Positions 7,970-27,445 of a stretch of 32,000 nucleotides of DNA are shown here, in pieces (the first letter of the stretch is position 1; the number at the start of each line of letters is the position of its first letter). The stretch is from Vibrio alginolyticus NBRC 15630 = ATCC 17749. GTDB lineage: Bacteria > Pseudomonadota > Gammaproteobacteria > Enterobacterales > Vibrionaceae. The stretch spans positions 630,001-662,000 of the forward strand of contig NC_022349.1 of NCBI RefSeq assembly GCF_000354175.2, given 5' to 3'. The notes beneath the pieces are model-generated. The model made no database searches. It saw only the letters and a list, made by a program, of their open reading frames with translations, and was not told where the DNA came from. The position numbers were made by a program, and so were the translations under genes.

Positions 7970-9022
7970 ATGTTAAACACGCTTAAACGTGCGTCTCTAG
8001 CAATGCTGTCAATGATGACAGCATTGCTGCTGACTTTCGCAATGCCTGCTTCAGCAGAGGAACAATCTTCTAAAGTTATTCAACAGGAGATCACGCAACT
8101 CGCCGGGGCAGACTATTGGCGCGAAGTCAGAGAGGGGCAAGAAGGTTATACCACGTCTAAATCGCCAGAACATGGCGTATTAATCAGTAAACCTGGTGAA
8201 ACTTGGTACATTCTAAAAGAGAAATGGATGTCTCCTGCTGGTGCTGTCGCGATTTTCGGCAGTATCGCGATGGTTATCATGGCTTACGTATTTGTTGGCC
8301 CTTTGATGCTAAGTAAGCCTCGTACAGGCAAAAAGATGAAGCGTTGGTCTCGTTTAGACCGCGCGCTTCACTGGAGTATGGCGTTTACATTCTTAACGTT
8401 GGCATTCAGTGGTTTGATGCTGGTTTACGGTAAGCACTTCTTAAAACCGTATGTTCCTACTGAGTTCTGGGGCTTTATCGTCATGTTGGCGAAGCAGTAC
8501 CACAATTACATGGGGCCATTGTTCTTCATTTTGCTGATGCTCGTGCTCTTTAAATGGTGGCGCAAGTCGATTCCAAACATGACTGATGTTCGTTGGTTCA
8601 TGAAAATGGGCGGTATGGTTGGTAAACACAAAGGCACACATCCGTCAGCTGGTTTCTCAAACGGTGGCGAGAAGGCAATCTATTGGTTGTTGATCTTCTT
8701 TGGTGCTATCGCGGCAGTGAGTGGCTTAGTTCTGGACTTTCCTATCTTTGGCCAAACTCGCCGTGACATGGAGCTTTCTAACTTAGTTCATGCGATTTCG
8801 GCACTGATTCTAATCTGTGGCTTTATCTTCCACATCTATATTGGTCTATTCGGTATGGAAGGTGCGTTAGAAGGCATGGTGACTGGTGAAGTTGATGAAA
8901 CATGGGCGAAAGAGCATCACGATCTTTGGTATGAAGAAGTGAAATCCAAAGAAGCAATGGGCGAAACAGATACGGCACAAACGGAAGTAAAAGGAGCGAA
9001 AGCGAATGAACAAACCTCATAA
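7970..9022 (+). CDS. fdhC: Formate dehydrogenase gamma (cytochrome b, membrane) subunit
   Basis: Start moved to ATG 7970, which has AAGGAGAGG 6 nt upstream. The track's 7910 start would overlap fdhB by 46 nt. The protein has a signal/anchor sequence (MLNTLKRASLAMLSMMTALLLTFAMPASA), four or more TM helices, and His residues typical of FdnI-like cytochrome b. Confidence 0.85.
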   Translation: MLNTLKRASLAMLSMMTALLLTFAMPASAEEQSSKVIQQEITQLAGADYWREVREGQEGYTTSKSPEHGVLISKPGETWYILKEKWMSPAGAVAIFGSIAMVIMAYVFVGPLMLSKPRTGKKMKRWSRLDRALHWSMAFTFLTLAFSGLMLVYGKHFLKPYVPTEFWGFIVMLAKQYHNYMGPLFFILLMLVLFKWWRKSIPNMTDVRWFMKMGGMVGKHKGTHPSAGFSNGGEKAIYWLLIFFGAIAAVSGLVLDFPIFGQTRRDMELSNLVHAISALILICGFIFHIYIGLFGMEGALEGMVTGEVDETWAKEHHDLWYEEVKSKEAMGETDTAQTEVKGAKANEQTS

Positions 9023-9422
9023 CGGGATTTGGGTTGCGTACATCCTGAGCTGTCTGACCCCGTTTACGTTTCTGATCTCAGGCGTTATCGCAATTATCTA
9101 TGCGGGTTACCGATTAGATAAGGGAGAAGACAGTGACGTAGTGATTTCTCATTACTACGGTTTAATTCGTACCTTCTTTCTCTACCTGACGTTTTTTGTT
9201 GTGTTGATCGTCACCGTCGCGACTTCTAACGGTGTACTCGTTGGCGTGAGTGATTATTGGTTGCATAGTACTTTGCTTGAAACCATCGCTTACTTTATTC
9301 CTTGGGTAGGGATGGTGTTTGCTGCATTAGCCATCTTGGTGTGGTTTATGCGAATGTTTCAAGGGATGCAGCAACTGCTCAATAACCAACCACACAGACC
9401 ATCGACAGGTCCAAACCTTTAA
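9006..9422 (+). CDS. Small polytopic membrane protein, unknown function, overlapping the fdhC 3' end
   Basis: 138 aa with 3-4 hydrophobic helices. Its ATG lies 17 nt inside fdhC, and the gene is followed by the operon terminator. Confidence 0.55.
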   Translation: MNKPHNGIWVAYILSCLTPFTFLISGVIAIIYAGYRLDKGEDSDVVISHYYGLIRTFFLYLTFFVVLIVTVATSNGVLVGVSDYWLHSTLLETIAYFIPWVGMVFAALAILVWFMRMFQGMQQLLNNQPHRPSTGPNL

Positions 9423-9440
9423 TCAGTATTCTTTAAGCAA

Positions 9441-9467
9441 AACCGCCGTAATAGGCGGTTTTTTTTG
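9441..9467 (+). terminator. Rho-independent terminator closing the FDH operon
   Basis: ACCGCC / GGCGGT stem followed by a T8 run. Confidence 0.8.
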
Positions 9468-9846
9468 TTGCTGTTTTGTCTCAAATATGAAGCGTTGAGT
9501 CGCAGTGGTGATACTTGATGCAACTTATTGAGTGAATTTACGTAACTGGGCAGAAAATCATAGTTAAGTAAGAAACATGTAAAAAAATCGCGTCACGATG
9601 AGACATTAGTCTCACTCACGCTATTGTTCATTTACTCAGGATTCATCGTCCCGTTAAAGTACGCTGCGCTCAGAAATTCAAAGAGTTGCATACGTGAAAA
9701 TTGCCATCAATACATTCAGTCTACTCATACAGAGGAATCTCTATCGGAGGATGTTTGATTAAGGCATCTTGCTCTCACAAATAAAAAGAGCGAAACGAGC
9801 ATTAAATGATGCGGCAAGGTAAGAAAAGGACAAACACGTTACGGCT

Positions 9847-12800
9847 ATGATCCCTCAATTCGTCATTCCTATCACGAATCGCTTTGGCGAAAGTTATCAC
9901 TTCTCTGGTCAGTTACTTACTAGCGGCGAACCTAAAACATTCGTGACCAAACAAGAGGCAATAGAGTTTCTTGAGAGCTTTGGTGAGCTTGACCTTCGCT
10001 CTGTCGAGGACTTGTTCTATGCGATTGGTCAATTCAAGCCAAACATACCTGACGGTGAGCTTACTTCCCAACACTATAATTCAACGTTTGCCAATGCTTT
10101 GGTGAACGGTGACTTGCATGTCGCTCGAATTGTACCTACCGGCGAAAACTACGCACTCTCGTCAGCGGTTACGCCTCCACCGACTCAAAATACCGTCAAT
10201 GCAAAACCATCGAAGGGAAAGGGGAAGTCGAATAAAAAGAGTGGCAGAAGTGCCGCATCCGACAAGCCTCAGCAACAAAGCAGCGAAAAACATGAGAAAG
10301 CCGGTGATCCTGTATCACTTGTGACGGGTGAAGAAATTCTCGAACTCTATGATATCGAGCTACAACAAGGTACTACTTGGCAGCGTACTTACCGCTCTTC
10401 GCAGTCGGATGTAAATCATGGAATGGGCTTTGGTTGGCGACATGCATTTCAGTTTGAATTACGCGAAAAGACGAACGAGAAAGACAATGTTATCGCTTGG
10501 GAGTTTGTTGACGATAAGGCCGATATCACAGAATTTGAGCCAGTAGATATTGGAGCAACAAGTTATCAAATATACGCTGGTGCGAGCTGTTATTTCCTGA
10601 GCTCAACAACTCGGATTGTAACGCTCGCGAATGGGCATCAATATCGATTTGAACAGAAAGATGATCGTTGGGTTGTTAAACAAGTCAGAAATGGCACGTT
10701 TTCAACGTTTCAACTGCAGTATTCTCGAAACCATCGATTGATCGAGATTGCATACAACAAGCGTCCGGTTCTTGAATGTCAATATGATAAGCAAGGACGC
10801 CTTGTAGAACTGCTAAATGCAAAGTCCCAAAAAGTTCTGACAACTTATACCTATGATGAGCACGATGATTTGGTCAGTGCAACTAATCATTTAGGCTTAA
10901 AGGAACAGTATCAATACCGCGGGCATTTAATTGTTAAACGTGTACGACCAACTGGCTTTACTCATTATTTTGAATGGGATGGCGAAGGTGCAAAAGCGAA
11001 ATGCATCAGAAACGTTGGGGACGCAGGAATTTATGACTATCGCTTCCATTATCAAGGAAATCACTCTTCTTATTCTGACTCGTTAGATCATCAATGGTCT
11101 TTCTTGCATGACGAGCAGGGTAACTTACTCGAGAAAATAAGCCCCACAGGTAAAACTTGGCGATGGCAATATGATGAATTAGGGCGAAAAGCGCAAGCTA
11201 TCTATCCTGATCAGTCAACGGTCAATTATCAATATAATCAGCATGGTCAATTAGTTTCTAAGTTTCATTCCTCTGGCAAAGAAATTCAATATGGTTATGA
11301 CGGCTTAGGTAAGTTAGTTAAAACGGTTTCACCTGACGGGGATATCGAGAAGGCTTACTACAATAGCCTCGGTCAAAGAGTTTGGGATACCGACCAGTTT
11401 GGCTGTGTCACGGAATATGATTACGATAAACACGGTCAAGTCGTCAAAAAAGAGTCTGAAGATGGTAAGAAAAGTCAGTGGTGGTGGGATGAACAACAAA
11501 GACTTATCGCGAATGAAATAGACGGTACATTACTTCGTTATAGCTACAATGAAGAAGATTTAGTGAATGGCGTTGCTTATCCCGATGGGTGTATTGCTCA
11601 ACTCGCTTATGATCAATTTGGCAGGCGTACATCAGTTCGTTATTTTAACGACGAAGACAAAGTCGGTTATAGCGAAGAATATTCTTACGATGAGCACAGC
11701 CGTGTTGCTCAGATTCGAACGCCAGCAGGCATTACCTCATATCAATGGGGAGCACTCGCGCAACAAGAAGCAGTCATCTTTCCCGATGGCAGCCATATTT
11801 CTTACGAATACGATCAACAACGTAACCTGACTAAATTAGTTCGGAGTGACGGCTTAGAGTTCGAATTCCTGTATGACGATGAAGGCCAGCTGTCAGGAAC
11901 TGTCGGGTTTGATAATCTACAAAGCCAATTTGATTATGATCATATGGGACGGATCCATCGTAAGCAAGTCGCCGATAGGACTGTGCTGTATCGCTATGAC
12001 GCTGCGGGTTATCTCAAGCACGTCAAAGCAGGAAATGGTAGCAGTATTGTAGAGAACCACTTCAACTATACGCTTGGTGGTCGACTTACTTTCGCATCCA
12101 ATCGCCATCAAACATTGCAATACCAACACTCTTCATTCGGGCATTTAACAAAGCGCATTCAAGGTCAGTTTGAGATAGCGCAGGAGTTTAACAGAGTTGG
12201 CCAACGCGTATCTCAGGTACTGCCAGATAATACGGAGCTGAACTTCTCTTACGATCGATATGGGCGTTTTTCAGCGATTCGGTTTGGAAACCTAGATTTA
12301 CCTCAAATCAAATTTCATTACGATGAAATGGGACGAGTTTCCCAAATTGAAACGGCATATTTTAATGAGCGCATCATTTATGATGGTGTTGGTCGTTTGG
12401 TCGAACAACATTGGCCTGATAGAGAGAAAAAGTACGTTTACAATGCGCAAAACCGTATTTCATCAATCATTGATAATACGGCAGGAGCAACACACTATCA
12501 GTACGATGCCTTAGGGCAACTGAAACGAGTCAATGCTTCCGGAGAAGTGACTAAGTTTGAATACGATAGTTTTGGCAATCCTACTTTGCCATCTTCAGAG
12601 GTATTCGCTGATCGTATTGAAGTACACGATGGTGTCCGGTTCAAATATGACGCGCAAGGAAACCAGACAAAACGTGAGGGGCAAGGACACGTTCAGACTC
12701 GCGTATTTGATGCGTTAAATCAGCTCATTGAAGTTCACACCGACGATGGCATCAGTCAATATGAATATGATGCATTAGGGCGCAGGACGAAGAAAATTAC

Positions 12801-14226
12801 ACAACAAGGCGTTACGGAGTTCTTGTGGGAAGGGGAACGTTTAATTGGTGAACGCTCTTCATGCGCTTTCCGCTGGTACCTATATCAACCAGAAACCTAC
12901 ACGCCAGTGGCACTGCTAGAAAATGACGTTATTTATTGGTACCAGTGCGATCAAGTTGGTAAACCAGAGCGACTGATCGATTGCGAGGGGAATGTTGTAT
13001 GGAGTGCCAGCTACGATGCTCATGGCTTTGCTCATGTACATATTGAAAAAGTAGTAAATCCACTGCGTTTTCAAGGGCAGTACTTCGATCAAGAAACCGA
13101 CTTACACTACAACCTCGCTCGGTATTACGATCCTAAGCTAGGACGCTTTATCCAACAAGATCCGATATCTATTGCTGGTGGCATTAACCATTACCAATAT
13201 GCAGTCAATCCTATCCAGTGGATTGATCCAACAGGTTTCCTTTGTGAAGAAGGGTTAAAACGCTTGGGTCAAATGTTGGCAGCGTATCAGGCGCAAAGCG
13301 ATGTCCCCCAAGAGGTTTGCGATCAGATTTTAGAGGCAGCAAAAGAATCATCCGTCGGAGAAGATGGCGTTCGCTCGCAAGTCAAAATCCGAAAACCCAA
13401 AGGTAAAAATCATATTCGATATGAATACGATTTAGACCATATTGATTGCGAGAAAAATGAAATTACTTTTTATCGTCATATCAATCATTCAGATGGCAGC
13501 AGGCACGAAGTTCAGTATGTTGTTGGGATTGAGGAATTTGTAAATGCGCATGTTTTTGACTCAGAGAAAGTTGGCGGGGAAGAAGGTTGCACGATCTTTA
13601 CTGAAGATCTTGTGCTGAATAAAGCAGAGTATAAAGAAAACTCTGAACTCAATACGAGTGATTATGAGCTAACAGAAAGAAACAAAGAAAAAATTGACGA
13701 ATGCTTAAAAGAGCGTCAAGAGGCAATCGACGCTCGAGCTGGCGAAGAGGGATATAACGCTCAAATTGGTAATATTAACCAACAGTCTGCAAAAATAGGT
13801 GAGTTGGCCGCGGATGACTTTGTCCGGAGTAAACGTCCTAATGCTAAGCTGCTTCATCCCAAAGATATTGGAACCTCAATTTCGAAGCCGGGCGACTTTG
13901 ATATGGTTTACCTCTCAGATGATCCTGAAGAAATCATCATCGTTGAGGCTAAGGGGGGCAGCAGCCCGCTCGGCAGTCGTAAAATTGGCAATGAAGCATA
14001 TCAGCAAGGGACAAGTAAATATGCGGCGGAAATAGTTAAGTTAATGTCAGAGAATAAAGAAGGAACGACTGAAAAATTAGCTGCCGACGAAATCCAATTT
14101 GCAGCTTTCTCCGGCATACCTATTCGATATATACATACTCAAGCAAGCATCCCAGAAAGTGGAAAAGCCTCGGACGTAAAACTAGAAGTGGCAGAATTTA
14201 AAATTGATTCAGAAGGACTAAAGTAA
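9847..14226 (+). CDS. Rhs/YD-repeat polymorphic toxin (PAAR-less) with a C-terminal PD-(D/E)xK nuclease-like payload
   Basis: 1459 aa with about 20 YD repeats (e.g. QYDKQGRLVEL, YGYDGLGKLVKT, YEYDALGRRTKK). The shell opens with DPVSLVTGEE (aa 154) and closes with RYYDPKLGRFIQQDP...PIQWIDPTGF. The only in-frame start is ATG 9847, because TAA lies at 9820. Confidence 0.93.
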   Translation: MIPQFVIPITNRFGESYHFSGQLLTSGEPKTFVTKQEAIEFLESFGELDLRSVEDLFYAIGQFKPNIPDGELTSQHYNSTFANALVNGDLHVARIVPTGENYALSSAVTPPPTQNTVNAKPSKGKGKSNKKSGRSAASDKPQQQSSEKHEKAGDPVSLVTGEEILELYDIELQQGTTWQRTYRSSQSDVNHGMGFGWRHAFQFELREKTNEKDNVIAWEFVDDKADITEFEPVDIGATSYQIYAGASCYFLSSTTRIVTLANGHQYRFEQKDDRWVVKQVRNGTFSTFQLQYSRNHRLIEIAYNKRPVLECQYDKQGRLVELLNAKSQKVLTTYTYDEHDDLVSATNHLGLKEQYQYRGHLIVKRVRPTGFTHYFEWDGEGAKAKCIRNVGDAGIYDYRFHYQGNHSSYSDSLDHQWSFLHDEQGNLLEKISPTGKTWRWQYDELGRKAQAIYPDQSTVNYQYNQHGQLVSKFHSSGKEIQYGYDGLGKLVKTVSPDGDIEKAYYNSLGQRVWDTDQFGCVTEYDYDKHGQVVKKESEDGKKSQWWWDEQQRLIANEIDGTLLRYSYNEEDLVNGVAYPDGCIAQLAYDQFGRRTSVRYFNDEDKVGYSEEYSYDEHSRVAQIRTPAGITSYQWGALAQQEAVIFPDGSHISYEYDQQRNLTKLVRSDGLEFEFLYDDEGQLSGTVGFDNLQSQFDYDHMGRIHRKQVADRTVLYRYDAAGYLKHVKAGNGSSIVENHFNYTLGGRLTFASNRHQTLQYQHSSFGHLTKRIQGQFEIAQEFNRVGQRVSQVLPDNTELNFSYDRYGRFSAIRFGNLDLPQIKFHYDEMGRVSQIETAYFNERIIYDGVGRLVEQHWPDREKKYVYNAQNRISSIIDNTAGATHYQYDALGQLKRVNASGEVTKFEYDSFGNPTLPSSEVFADRIEVHDGVRFKYDAQGNQTKREGQGHVQTRVFDALNQLIEVHTDDGISQYEYDALGRRTKKITQQGVTEFLWEGERLIGERSSCAFRWYLYQPETYTPVALLENDVIYWYQCDQVGKPERLIDCEGNVVWSASYDAHGFAHVHIEKVVNPLRFQGQYFDQETDLHYNLARYYDPKLGRFIQQDPISIAGGINHYQYAVNPIQWIDPTGFLCEEGLKRLGQMLAAYQAQSDVPQEVCDQILEAAKESSVGEDGVRSQVKIRKPKGKNHIRYEYDLDHIDCEKNEITFYRHINHSDGSRHEVQYVVGIEEFVNAHVFDSEKVGGEEGCTIFTEDLVLNKAEYKENSELNTSDYELTERNKEKIDECLKERQEAIDARAGEEGYNAQIGNINQQSAKIGELAADDFVRSKRPNAKLLHPKDIGTSISKPGDFDMVYLSDDPEEIIIVEAKGGSSPLGSRKIGNEAYQQGTSKYAAEIVKLMSENKEGTTEKLAADEIQFAAFSGIPIRYIHTQASIPESGKASDVKLEVAEFKIDSEGLK
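13210..13239 (+). other. Rhs C-terminal autoproteolysis motif (PxxxxDPxGF)
   Basis: PIQWIDPTGF (aa 1122-1131), preceded by the YDPKLGRF aspartyl-protease block. The payload is predicted to start at L1132. Confidence 0.8.
13240..14223 (+). other. Rhs C-terminal toxin region (aa 1132-1459): unassigned ~178 aa plus PD-(D/E)xK-like core
   Basis: Candidate catalytic residues are E1319 (helix GELAADDF), D1350/D1352 (PGDFDMVYL) and E1367-A-K1369 (IIIVEAKGG). The 15-17 residue spacing is typical of the restriction-endonuclease fold. Confidence 0.6.
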
Positions 14227-14228
14227 AA

Positions 14229-15128
14229 ATGCAAAGCAAAGAATCGGTCAAAGTTGTAGAGCGCAAAGCAAATCCTGAACTTGACACTCAAGCCATTGTG
14301 AATCGGAAAAAATTTATAAACCGGGTCTTAGATAACAGAAAAGAAGGTCTTAAAATCAGGCGGGAAAACCTGGTCAGTCTTGGTGATTTTGCCATTGACC
14401 AGGTTCGCTGGTATACCTGGTTTCAAGCCTCACATGAAGATGAGCAAATATGTACCTTGCGTCTTTATGAAACTTCGCTAATGGGCGCATGTTATCATCG
14501 GCTCGCTATGTATCAGAAAGAACCATTAAGTATCCAGATACTCGGCTATCCAGAAGTGACATGGGATGGGGAAGGTATTTTAAAAACAGGCTTCATTTGT
14601 CCTTCAATGTGGCTAGATGCGTATTTTACTTCGGTGATTGTGCGTGATAAACCTAGCATGGACGTATTGGCGAACTTTCCGATTTCTTTGATGAGACAAA
14701 GCTCTACTAAAGCGGGTGAATTGTCTTACATGTTAGTAGATGTCATCCAGTCGTTTCATAATCGCACATCGGACTATCCTGATAAGCTCGTCGCAGCAAT
14801 GGACGCAGCGGTAGCCCAAGGGGATAACTGGGCGTTGGAAATTGCGATGGGGCTCCTAGAAACCTTCGCAGCGCTCACTACTAACATTGGTTATGATTTT
14901 GAGGAAGTGCTCGTTAAAAACCTACAGTTTCAAGAGAAATATCATCTTAGAGAATTGGGACCAGATAGAGTAGGGATCCGCACGTTCATTAATTTCCCTC
15001 TGCTTGGTATGGCATGTATGTGGTATGACAAAGGTAACCGTTTATCTGTTGAAACTGGTTGGCTCCCCCCCTATCTCGTTGAAGGACGTTGGCTAGAAGA
15101 AGTAAAAGCCGGGAAGATCACTCGATAA
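14229..15128 (+). CDS. Cognate immunity protein candidate for the Rhs toxin
   Basis: 299 aa. Its ATG is 2 nt after the rhs stop. It has no signal peptide or TM segment, shares the low GC of rhs, and is followed by a terminator. Confidence 0.7.
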   Translation: MQSKESVKVVERKANPELDTQAIVNRKKFINRVLDNRKEGLKIRRENLVSLGDFAIDQVRWYTWFQASHEDEQICTLRLYETSLMGACYHRLAMYQKEPLSIQILGYPEVTWDGEGILKTGFICPSMWLDAYFTSVIVRDKPSMDVLANFPISLMRQSSTKAGELSYMLVDVIQSFHNRTSDYPDKLVAAMDAAVAQGDNWALEIAMGLLETFAALTTNIGYDFEEVLVKNLQFQEKYHLRELGPDRVGIRTFINFPLLGMACMWYDKGNRLSVETGWLPPYLVEGRWLEEVKAGKITR

Positions 15129-15155
15129 ACTCCTTTAGTTAGCAATTCCGTATAT

Positions 15156-15184
15156 AAGCCACCTCTCATGAGGTGGCTTTTACG
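15156..15184 (+). terminator. Rho-independent terminator after the immunity gene
   Basis: AAGCCACCTC / GAGGTGGCTT stem with a 4-nt loop followed by TTT. Confidence 0.7.
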
Positions 15185-15220
15185 TTTATCGTATAAAGTT
15201 TGCTGTTTGTTGAGCTATAT

Positions 15221-15261
15221 GGTGCGCATTATGTTGGTGCACTAAAACCATATTGGTGCAC
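15221..15261 (+). promoter_or_regulatory. GGTGC(A/G)C repeat cluster, possible NtrC-type enhancer
   Basis: GGTGCGC at 15221, and TTGGTGCAC at 15234 and 15253. GGTGCA is the NtrC half-site, but the dyad spacings are not canonical. The cluster lies 100-135 bp upstream of the sigma54 motif. Confidence 0.35.
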
Positions 15262-15357: not shown

Positions 15358-15372
15358 TGGAATGAGAATTGC
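15358..15372 (+). promoter_or_regulatory. Sigma54 promoter candidate for amt
   Basis: TGGAATGAGAATTGC has GG and GC in the consensus register (TGGCAC-N5-TTGC). It lies about 100 nt upstream of ATG 15471. Confidence 0.45.
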
Positions 15373-15470
15373 TCTGATAGACGCTCTATAAATTAAGTTC
15401 ACCAAATTGGTGATGAGCCTAACTTTGATGCACAGGATAAGTGCGCTACAGATCAACGGAGACAATCATA

Positions 15471-26844: not shown

Positions 26845-27445
26845 ATTACCACCTTCTAAAGAAGGTGGCTTTGTGTGAGCCCCCTAAAAGGGGGCCTTTG
26901 TTTAGTCCAGCGCCAATTGCTGCTGCTCTACTCGCTCTTGCTTCTCTTGATGTCTTACATATCGGCGTATTATTTCTTCATTGATTCCAACACTATCGAC
27001 AAAATAGCCTCTTTGCCAAAAGTGATTACCCCAAAGCCTGTTCTTCCTAAGGTGAGGAAACTTGCTAAATAGCTTTAAGGCTATTTTGCCTTTCAATACC
27101 CCCATCAACTTGGATATCGAAAGCTTTGGTGGGACCTTTACAACTAAATGTACGTGGTCAACTTGTACGTTTAGCTCTACGACTTCACATCCAAGTTGAT
27201 TACAGTAAACATAAATACATCGATAAACTTCTTTACCTATATTGTTCTTCAAGATCCTAAATCGATACTTTGGCGTCCACACTATATGGTATTGACAACG
27301 CCAAAATACGTGGGAAGCTTGATTGTATCTACTCATGTTATTTGTCCTCTTTGACTTCTGGAAAAATCAAAGACGCATTTAGCATGAGTAGTTTTACAGG
27401 CAAAGCCGAAACGGATGATAACCACCTACTGAAGTAGGTGGTTTA
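26845..27445 (-). mobile_element. IS200-type insertion sequence (IS200/IS605 family, tnpA only); ends approximate
   Basis: A Y1 transposase gene is flanked by same-orientation subterminal hairpins (26849-26868 CCACCTTC/GAAGGTGG; 27421-27442 ACCACCTAC/GTAGGTGGT). There are no inverted terminal repeats, as expected for this family. The element lies between the ttcA and uspE terminators. Confidence 0.8.
26902..27336 (-). CDS. tnpA: IS200/IS605-family Y1 (HUH) transposase TnpA
   Basis: 144 aa with HUH motif HVHLVV, YHIVWTPKYR and catalytic-Tyr region RGYFVDSVG. It looks intact. Confidence 0.92.
   Translation of the reverse strand: MSRYNQASHVFWRCQYHIVWTPKYRFRILKNNIGKEVYRCIYVYCNQLGCEVVELNVQVDHVHLVVKVPPKLSISKLMGVLKGKIALKLFSKFPHLRKNRLWGNHFWQRGYFVDSVGINEEIIRRYVRHQEKQERVEQQQLALD

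Follow-up and report, generated by a model that had tools for sequence, protein, structure and literature searches.

Introduction

The closest described relatives of the locus examined here are Rhs effectors of the Vibrio type VI secretion system 2 (T6SS2). In V. alginolyticus 12G01 the VP1517 homolog Va18287 belongs to the T6SS2-dependent secretome and forms, together with Va18282, a validated effector/immunity pair that is encoded outside the T6SS2 cluster (PMC4549250, Salomon et al. 2015). Its V. parahaemolyticus counterpart T2Rhs-Nuc has been validated in two strains, where its deletion abolishes Hcp2 secretion, and the gene is found in 73 of 75 complete V. parahaemolyticus genomes (PMC9980498, Tchelet et al. 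2023). The same protein under the name RhsP (VP1517) is represented in the PDB by entries 8H8A, 8H8B and 8H8C and, as papers citing Tang et al. 2022 (Cell Rep) report it, RhsP undergoes autoproteolysis-triggered dimerization and binds VgrG2 through a VgrG2-interacting region (VIR). An earlier account of RhsP (2018 Nat Commun; PMC6156420) has been retracted and was excluded from the evidence used here. The present work concerns a 32,000-nucleotide stretch of the V. alginolyticus NBRC 15630 (= ATCC 17749) chromosome (NC_022349.1, positions 630,001 to 662,000, forward strand; hereafter the window), in which an rhs gene and an adjoining imm49 gene lie between a formate dehydrogenase (FDH)-type operon and the ammonium transporter gene amt. 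We describe the domain anatomy and orthology of the encoded proteins, the synteny and empty sites of the locus, its allelic polymorphism, the conservation of the predicted catalytic residues and the linkage of the toxin to Imm49. With high probability the locus encodes the V. alginolyticus ortholog of RhsP/T2Rhs-Nuc, a T6SS2 cargo effector, and the immunity protein that goes with it.

Results

Domain organization and orthology of the Rhs protein

The two open reading frames (ORFs) that a previous sequence-only reading of this DNA had picked out as an rhs gene and an immunity candidate were both recovered, and profile searches assign them to the Rhs and Imm49 families. Only 2 nt separate the rhs stop codon from the imm49 start. 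The features of the pair, all on the + strand, are as follows.

9847–14226, +: rhs, ORF of 1459 aa, identical to AGV16404.1
9847–10308, +: N-terminal region, aa 1–154, shared with RhsP (aligned from residue 1), with no Pfam or NCBIfam family
10309–13239, +: Rhs/YD-repeat cage, ending in the Rhs-associated core (RHS_repeat, YD_repeat_2x, Rhs_assc_core)
10309–10332, +: PVxxxxGE N-terminal autocleavage motif, P155-V-S-L-V-T-G-E162 (PVSLVTGE), within the DUF6531 plug
13240–13557, +: conserved first part of the predicted cleaved C-terminal fragment, aa 1132–1237, near-identical to residues 1–106 of 8H8A chain B
13558–14223, +: variable toxin domain, aa 1238–1459, predicted PD-(D/E)xK (restriction-endonuclease fold) nuclease
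14229–15128, +: imm49, cognate immunity gene (PF15575), ORF of 299 aa, identical to AGV16405.1, annotated ‘immunity 49 family protein’

The Rhs protein matches PF05593 RHS_repeat in six stretches (E 3.7e-68) and TIGR01643 (E 9.6e-51), as well as YD_repeat_2x, RHS, DUF6531 and Rhs_assc_core, and it aligns with the solved Rhs cages 8H8B, 8QJA, 7Q97 and 8UY4. The alignment to RhsP is collinear from end to end, aa 1–1237 corresponding to residues 22–1258 of 8H8B with a score of 2134 bits, and by this collinearity the protein is the V. alginolyticus ortholog of V. parahaemolyticus RhsP/VP1517/T2Rhs-Nuc and a member of the T6SS2 cargo effector family. Pfam and NCBIfam scans of the protein gave no match to a PAAR family.

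The sequence-only reading had singled out the N-terminal module as unassigned. It is indeed without a Pfam or NCBIfam family, but it has a known counterpart, being collinear with the RhsP N-terminus and followed, as there, by the PVxxxxGE motif; its first 152 aa are 47% identical to those of a V. parahaemolyticus ortholog. Modelling suggests that aa 1–154 comprise a small α/β domain (aa ~1–97) and a disordered linker rich in Lys, Ser and Gln, although the single-sequence AlphaFold2 (AF2) model is of low confidence (mean predicted local distance difference test score, pLDDT, 57) and not good enough to serve in a fold search. With aa 1–153 as query, a homology search returned just two near-identical fragments and is uninformative on other carriers of this region.

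Two sites of self-cleavage are predicted from motifs held in common with characterized Rhs effectors. The DUF6531 plug (aa 153–210, E 1.2e-11) contains PVSLVTGE, and x/PVxxxxGE is described as the N-terminal autocleavage motif of RhsP and of Aeromonas TseI in literature that relays the original work (PMC11461821, citing Tang 2022 and Pei 2020); N-terminal cleavage is thus predicted between D154 and P155. At the other end of the cage, where the Rhs-associated core TIGR03696 spans aa 1056–1130 (E 1.1e-26), the sequence reads WIDPTGF/L, in which D1127-P-T-G-F1131 corresponds to the DPxG[LF] aspartyl-protease cleavage motif. Chain A of 8H8A stops at the equivalent of F1131 and chain B starts at the equivalent of L1132, and aspartyl autoproteolysis is predicted to take place after F1131.

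In 8H8A and 8H8C, residues 1–106 of the C-terminal peptide released by cleavage are nearly identical to aa 1132–1237. No other part of the protein is as well conserved (88% to the V. parahaemolyticus ortholog), and V. alginolyticus alleles that carry different toxins differ there by only a few substitutions. From this correspondence we infer that aa 1132–1237 are the VIR, a segment that is placed directly before the effector domain, and limited to Rhs proteins of Vibrio and of a few Shewanella and Pseudoalteromonas, in a preprint (bioRxiv 10.1101/2024.02.26.582050). The ‘bipartite payload’ in which novelty had been seen therefore consists of a region already described, the putative VIR, joined to a polymorphic toxin.

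Relative to the V. parahaemolyticus ortholog, the cage is 78% identical and the VIR 88% conserved while the tip varies, a distribution that bears on what the protein is chiefly selected for. Its main role may be structural, as a ‘checkpoint’ of T6SS2 assembly and firing, with the toxin tip as a secondary and swappable passenger, and we hold this to be an evenly balanced possibility. The conserved cage and VIR speak for it, as do the loss of Hcp2 secretion upon deletion of T2Rhs-Nuc in two V. parahaemolyticus strains and the near-universal presence of the gene in that species (PMC9980498). Such a role is, however, compatible with that of a toxin and does not exclude it; wild-type kin kill effector/immunity deletion strains in the published work on orthologs, and the diversifying toxin/immunity arrays described below indicate selection on killing and protection.

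The toxin domain and its family

On residue conservation and a structural model, the C-terminal tip is predicted to be a PD-(D/E)xK nuclease with E1319, D1352, E1367 and K1369 as catalytic residues. The domain matches no Pfam family at E <= 10 and no NCBIfam model. A profile search against 1.84 billion representative proteins retrieved 521 relatives at E <= 1e-3 (181 at E <= 1e-10); in long proteins the match lies at or near the C-terminus, and many of the other relatives are short fragments. Across 62 diverse homologs D1352, E1367, K1369, Q1387, G1388 and Y1392 are 100% conserved, Y1428 is conserved in 98% and E1319 in 79%, giving the family consensus Sx3GE...G[DE]FDx[VI][WYF]...[YF]x3EAKGG with an extra invariant QG[TS]xxY. 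An AF2 model built from 13 homologs (pLDDT 78.9, predicted template modelling score 0.78) has the element order α1-β1-β2-β3-(hairpin)-α2-α3-β4-β5 and places E1319, D1352 and the ExK motif on helix 66–92 (α1), at the start of strand 116–121 (β2) and on strand 124–133 (β3), respectively.

The invariant residues match the signature ‘E, D, ExK, Q, Y’ published for Tox-REase-6, for which Imm49 is the listed immunity protein; Tox-REase-1 (‘E, D, ExK, Q’) likewise pairs with Imm49 (PMC3482391, Zhang et al. 2012). Here too the gene adjoining the toxin encodes Imm49. No Pfam or NCBIfam scan of the toxin turned up a Tox-REase-1, Tox-REase-6 or PoNe family, and to our knowledge none of the three has a profile in these libraries. 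The toxin/immunity module, catalogued in silico in 2012, is still without a curated profile.

A Foldseek comparison of the model with the PDB ranked HindIII, HincII, EcoRV, a tRNA-splicing endonuclease, a cap-snatching endonuclease and Shedu highest, none of them significantly (E >= 0.028), and comparison with viral structures gave weak matches only (E >= 0.023), a few of which are annotated as PD-(D/E)xK-like. Some PD-(D/E)xK toxins are tRNases, which tells against taking a DNA substrate as more than presumed. The same effector, delivered in the same way, might accordingly act as an RNase specific for, for example, tRNA or rRNA, a reading that we consider unlikely. The top fold matches, non-significant as they are, are type II restriction enzymes; most characterized T6SS toxins of this fold, including the motif-similar PoNe, are Mg-dependent DNases (PMC6688995); and every other allele at the locus, in the published set (PMC9980498) and among those examined here, is of the DNase-associated HNH, AHH or GHH type. 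The toxin is thus most likely a DNase.

The range of proteins that carry the domain extends beyond Rhs. A Pfam scan of ten carriers found Rhs, eCIS-core (PF13699), DUF4781 and Ntox1-containing proteins among them, with 4 of the 10 lacking any family, and when the aligned C-terminal regions of ten distant homologs were scanned no Pfam family was found in any. In two relatives (P0093 and P0096) an N-terminal eCIS_core (PF13699) is combined with the same toxin domain at the C-terminus, which suggests that the toxin family is also a cargo of extracellular contractile injection systems.

Several other matches were set aside. PIN-TPR-GreABC (E 0.03, below the cutoff) and T4_baseplate/DUF4722 (E ~0.1) were rejected as Pfam noise. 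The entries P0075 and P0077, which appeared to be distant toxin homologs, proved to be frameshifted translations of the same gene and were excluded; the shift out of frame sets in at the ExK motif in P0077 and before it in P0075. Such entries could mislead alignments and could make it seem that some strains have inactivated toxin copies.

No biochemical study of the Imm49-linked PD-(D/E)xK family was found in the literature searched. With its 521 representative clusters, the family might have a target other than DNA (a specific tRNA or rRNA) or might be inhibited in an unusual manner by the all-α Imm49, a proposal to which we attach a low probability; were it true, the Vibrio T6SS2 allele, being genetically tractable, would provide the first experimental model of this toxin family.

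Imm49, allelic variation and cassette arrays

The product of imm49 matches PF15575 with E 2e-46 and 158.8 bits against a cutoff of 30.1, aa 69–283 aligning with positions 4–217 of the 217-position profile. The association of toxin and Imm49 holds at a distance: a metagenome scan with the diverse toxin alignment found 67 loci, an Imm49-like product was encoded by 34 of 56 downstream ORFs, and all ten of the distant downstream ORFs that were checked scored above the Pfam Imm49 threshold.

Within V. alginolyticus, members of the same 90%-identity Rhs cluster combine a near-identical core and VIR with tips that are either PD-(D/E)xK subtypes or AHH-, GHH- or HNH-like, so that at least four toxin types occur at the locus. 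The C-terminus is polymorphic between strains and the allele of the window is not fixed. This pattern is that of Rhs C-terminal displacement and, from the alignments, the junction is at the end of the VIR (about aa 1232–1237) and not at the DPxG motif.

In V. parahaemolyticus the variation extends to arrays of 4 to 7 Imm49 genes (L086, 6274–11614; L087 and L088, 6273–16565), in which a full Rhs-Imm49 pair comes first and as many as six additional Imm49 genes, with an ankyrin-repeat gene, lie behind it. Pairwise identity among the Imm49 paralogs is 67–94%. Truncated toxin ORFs of 45, 109, 182 and 237 aa are interspersed in the arrays and retain pieces of the VIR, the putative homology arm, and a terminator segment of ~92 bp closes each cassette; the corresponding part of the window (15102–15191) matches four sites in L087. 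These loci are polyimmunity/orphan-cassette arrays. The window has none: tblastn found no further toxin or Imm49 remnant in it, and it holds a single cassette. The sequence-only reading, which had noted that orphan C-terminal/immunity cassettes were lacking, was therefore right for the window, but such cassettes do occur at the same locus in V. parahaemolyticus strains. The locus is an example of toxins being swapped while the conserved segment for VgrG2 docking, as it seems, serves also as a recombination arm.

The insertion between the FDH operon and amt

The place of the pair in related genomes was followed in two ways. A genome-collection scan with amt covered species-representative genomes and gave at least 80 loci, among the listed ones of which V. 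alginolyticus and V. parahaemolyticus do not figure; the context in these two species was taken from exact-protein look-ups. Among the loci listed, four from other Vibrio have only 273–360 bp between the gene for a 138-aa protein at the end of the FDH operon and amt, in an otherwise syntenic neighbourhood. The features that delimit the insertion are these.

9439–9462, +: intrinsic terminator ending the FDH operon, 9-bp stem and T8 tail, −15.9 kcal/mol, z −3.2
15156–15179, +: intrinsic terminator ending the rhs-imm49 operon, −19.8 kcal/mol, z −6.9
~9465–15218, strand not applicable: segment missing from the syntenic FDH–amt interval of four other Vibrio, ~5.75 kb, edges about ±30 bp
Empty-site loci: L001, a Vibrio metagenome-assembled genome (MAG); L002, V. 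bivalvicida; L003, V. nereis; L007, V. chagasii

The closest of these four empty sites, L001, can be aligned with the window to a point a little beyond the FDH terminator (~9464) and again from ~15219. The FDH terminator is also present in L001 and therefore stands just outside the left edge of the insertion. Much of what the sequence-only reading had said of the layout is borne out by these data: the two strong terminators around the pair were recovered with the energies given above, Pfam scans agree on the core metabolic flanks (FDH operon and amt), and the missing segment lies close to the 9468–15184 interval which it had taken for an insertion. It had also proposed to look in related genomes for empty sites or alternative toxin alleles; both exist, the empty sites in L001, L002, L003 and L007 and the alternative alleles among members of the V. 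alginolyticus Rhs cluster.

The low GC on which that reading had built its island was not borne out. The segment 9468–15184 has 43.0% GC against 44.1% in the remainder of the window, 40% of equal-sized (5.7-kb) windows have a GC content no higher, and the line counts of 32–35% that had been quoted are local fluctuations. By gene, GC is 43.2% in rhs, 43.7% in imm49, 48.5% in fdhA and 46.8% in amt. At third codon positions rhs is low (37.9%) but not the lowest, sir2 standing at 35.8% and the usp gene at 37.0%, and the codon-usage distances of rhs and imm49 (0.099 and 0.123) are within the span of the window genes (0.054–0.155). Atypical composition, by which islands are recognized, is thus absent from the rhs-imm49 segment in GC and codon usage alike. 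An IS200-like transposase gene (Y1_Tnp, E 7e-40; 26902–27336, − strand) is at the extreme of the window genes both in GC (39.3%, the lowest) and in codon usage (0.155, the most deviant); it is the only clear mobile element of the window, 11.7 kb from the Rhs locus.

The ORF and Pfam scans found no integrase or transposase inside or adjoining the segment, and the search for flanking direct repeats at the insertion gave none, only short chance repeats. Pfam scans of the sizeable ORFs of the window likewise found no VgrG, PAAR, Hcp, DUF1795 or integrase family, in agreement with the absence of vgrG, PAAR, Eag/DUF1795, hcp and integrase genes that had been noted from the sequence; the pair is indeed encoded away from secretion machinery, no T6SS family being present among the window ORFs.

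The exact-protein look-ups put the pair at this position in many genomes, with an identical Imm49 in 76 index blocks. In V. parahaemolyticus (L086–L088) the Rhs gene occupies the identical site with junction sequences that align, in the gene order cytochrome b, 138-aa gene, Rhs, Imm49(s), amt, Sir2, potD. Because the insertion and its matching junctions are common to V. parahaemolyticus, the insertion is probably older than the split between V. alginolyticus and V. parahaemolyticus, and the native composition of the segment fits such an age. In one V. alginolyticus genome (GCA_015782615.1; L083, 5619–9998) only a 204-aa gene is called at the Rhs position; a pseudogene or loss of Rhs was rejected for this locus, as the DNA there matches the window at 99.95% identity and keeps the frame intact, and the short call is an annotation gap.

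The sequence-only reading would have the pair as a recently acquired, low-GC orphan island with an undescribed Rhs architecture and a delivery route that cannot be assigned. V. chagasii, V. nereis, V. bivalvicida and the Vibrio MAG lack the pair where synteny would place it, which agrees with acquisition; Pfam scans show no T6SS gene in the window, and neither the N-terminal 154 aa nor the toxin has a Pfam or NCBIfam family. Against it are the flat GC and codon profile without mobility genes or flanking repeats, the insertion with matching junctions in V. parahaemolyticus, and an architecture that, N-terminus and first half of the payload included, is collinear with the solved and studied RhsP; we regard this explanation as highly improbable. 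As its own refutation it had named a flat GC and codon profile together with an allele that is fixed at the locus and already characterized: the profile is flat and the family characterized, but the allele is not fixed and its C-terminus is polymorphic. Nor is the combination of modules undescribed, the family having been characterized experimentally in both V. parahaemolyticus and V. alginolyticus.

Neighbouring genes

Upstream of rhs the FDH-type operon encodes an Fe-S protein, a chaperone, a molybdopterin subunit, a 4Fe-4S subunit, a cytochrome b and a 138-aa membrane protein; downstream of imm49 are amt, a Sir2 deacetylase gene and a pot-type ATP-binding cassette system. The operon starts with a conserved pair of DUF3305 and DUF3306 proteins of no known function (506–1586, +). 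The gene for the 138-aa predicted membrane protein (9006–9422, +) overlaps the 3′ end of the FDH cytochrome b gene and has no Pfam family; it is found in the same position in the four empty-site loci, with 73–84% identity, and may encode an uncharacterized accessory subunit of the FDH operon.

Upstream of amt (15220–15261 and 15358–15373), GGTGC(A/G)C boxes occur repeatedly (TGGTGCGCATTATGTTGGTGCAC, then TTGGTGCAC), accompanied by a TGGAAT-N5-TTGCT element; by sequence they look like NtrC sites and a sigma-54 promoter. In the empty site L001 the first GGTGC(A/G)C box and the last ~130 bp are kept, so that the amt regulatory region is outside the insertion.

Discussion

The organization of the locus, read in the light of its orthologs, allows a mechanism to be proposed, in which T6SS2 dependence, VgrG2 binding, autocleavage and the requirement for firing are carried over from the literature on those proteins. 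The 1459-aa protein would fold as a YD-repeat cage around its own C-terminal fragment and, by analogy with RhsP, would cleave itself twice, between D154 and P155 at PVxxxxGE and after F1131 at DPxGF. Within the released fragment the VIR (aa 1132–1237) would dock on the VgrG2 spike of a T6SS2 encoded elsewhere in the genome, and this system would then fire the effector into neighbouring bacteria. There the toxin (aa 1238–1459), a putative metal-dependent PD-(D/E)xK nuclease of the Tox-REase-6/PoNe-like group and most likely a DNase, would kill neighbours that lack the cognate Imm49, while the Imm49 encoded in the same operon would shield sibling cells. As in V. parahaemolyticus, the effector is probably also required for T6SS2 to fire at all. 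The toxin/immunity module would be exchanged among strains and species by recombination, the VIR and the terminator segment behind the immunity gene serving as presumed homology arms.

A number of points count against this interpretation. The window shows neither T6SS2 nor VgrG2, so that the mode of delivery is the one expected from the orthologs, and the exact boundaries of the VIR are known at second hand only (Tang 2022). The best fold match of the toxin to a solved nuclease has a Foldseek E of 0.028 with template modelling scores of 0.2–0.3, below significance, and a search of PDB sequences with the toxin family profile found no match at E <= 10. The toxin is not covered by any curated model, and its family label is drawn from the residue signature and the immunity partner. 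Finally, the validated 12G01 pair may or may not be of the same toxin/Imm49 allele as that of the window.

The principal value of the analysis is that it removes a false lead, since what had been taken for an undescribed architecture is the RhsP/T2Rhs-Nuc effector, while the toxin tip draws attention to a large Imm49-paired nuclease family that has no curated model.

Comparison with PoNe and its immunity protein PoNi (V12_14465/V12_14460; PMC6688995; structures 9VY2, 9WAQ and 9VYD) shows that both groups, the window family by prediction, are PD-(D/E)xK toxins in Vibrio T6SS effectors, with the same element order α1-β1-β2-β3-α2-α3-β4-β5. The PoNe motif Kx3GE...GIDx2Y...Yx3ExK (PMC6688995) has a skeleton similar to that of the window toxin family although the signature residues differ; PoNe is moreover paired with DUF1910/DUF1911 PoNi and not with Imm49, and lacks the invariant QG[TS]xxY. 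Searches with the single sequence or the profile against the PDB gave no sequence match to the PoNe structures, whose entries are possibly absent from the copy of the PDB used. The likeness to Tox-REase-6 and Tox-REase-1 (PMC3482391) extends to the restriction-endonuclease fold predicted for the window toxin, the residue signature, the Imm49 neighbour and the C-terminal position on Rhs and other polymorphic toxins; the comparison, made by published signature, does not separate Tox-REase-1 from Tox-REase-6.

For the protein as a whole the closest system is RhsP/VP1517/T2Rhs-Nuc, with its immunity protein RhsPI/VP1518. The N-terminus is collinear, and the PVxxxxGE motif, DUF6531 plug, YD cage, DPxGF motif and VIR are all found in both; both are without PAAR, occupy the same chromosomal locus and are encoded outside the T6SS2 cluster. 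The difference from RhsP of RIMD 2210633 is in the payload, which there is an HNH/WHH-type tip with its own immunity protein as opposed to PD-(D/E)xK with Imm49 here. The 12G01 pair Va18287/Va18282, from the same species, is described as ‘RhsA, Nuclease’ and a VP1517 homolog (PMC4549250). The locus analysed here thus adds a new allele, and a new member, to an effector family that is known and has been studied by experiment; its GC content is not low and its architecture has been described before.

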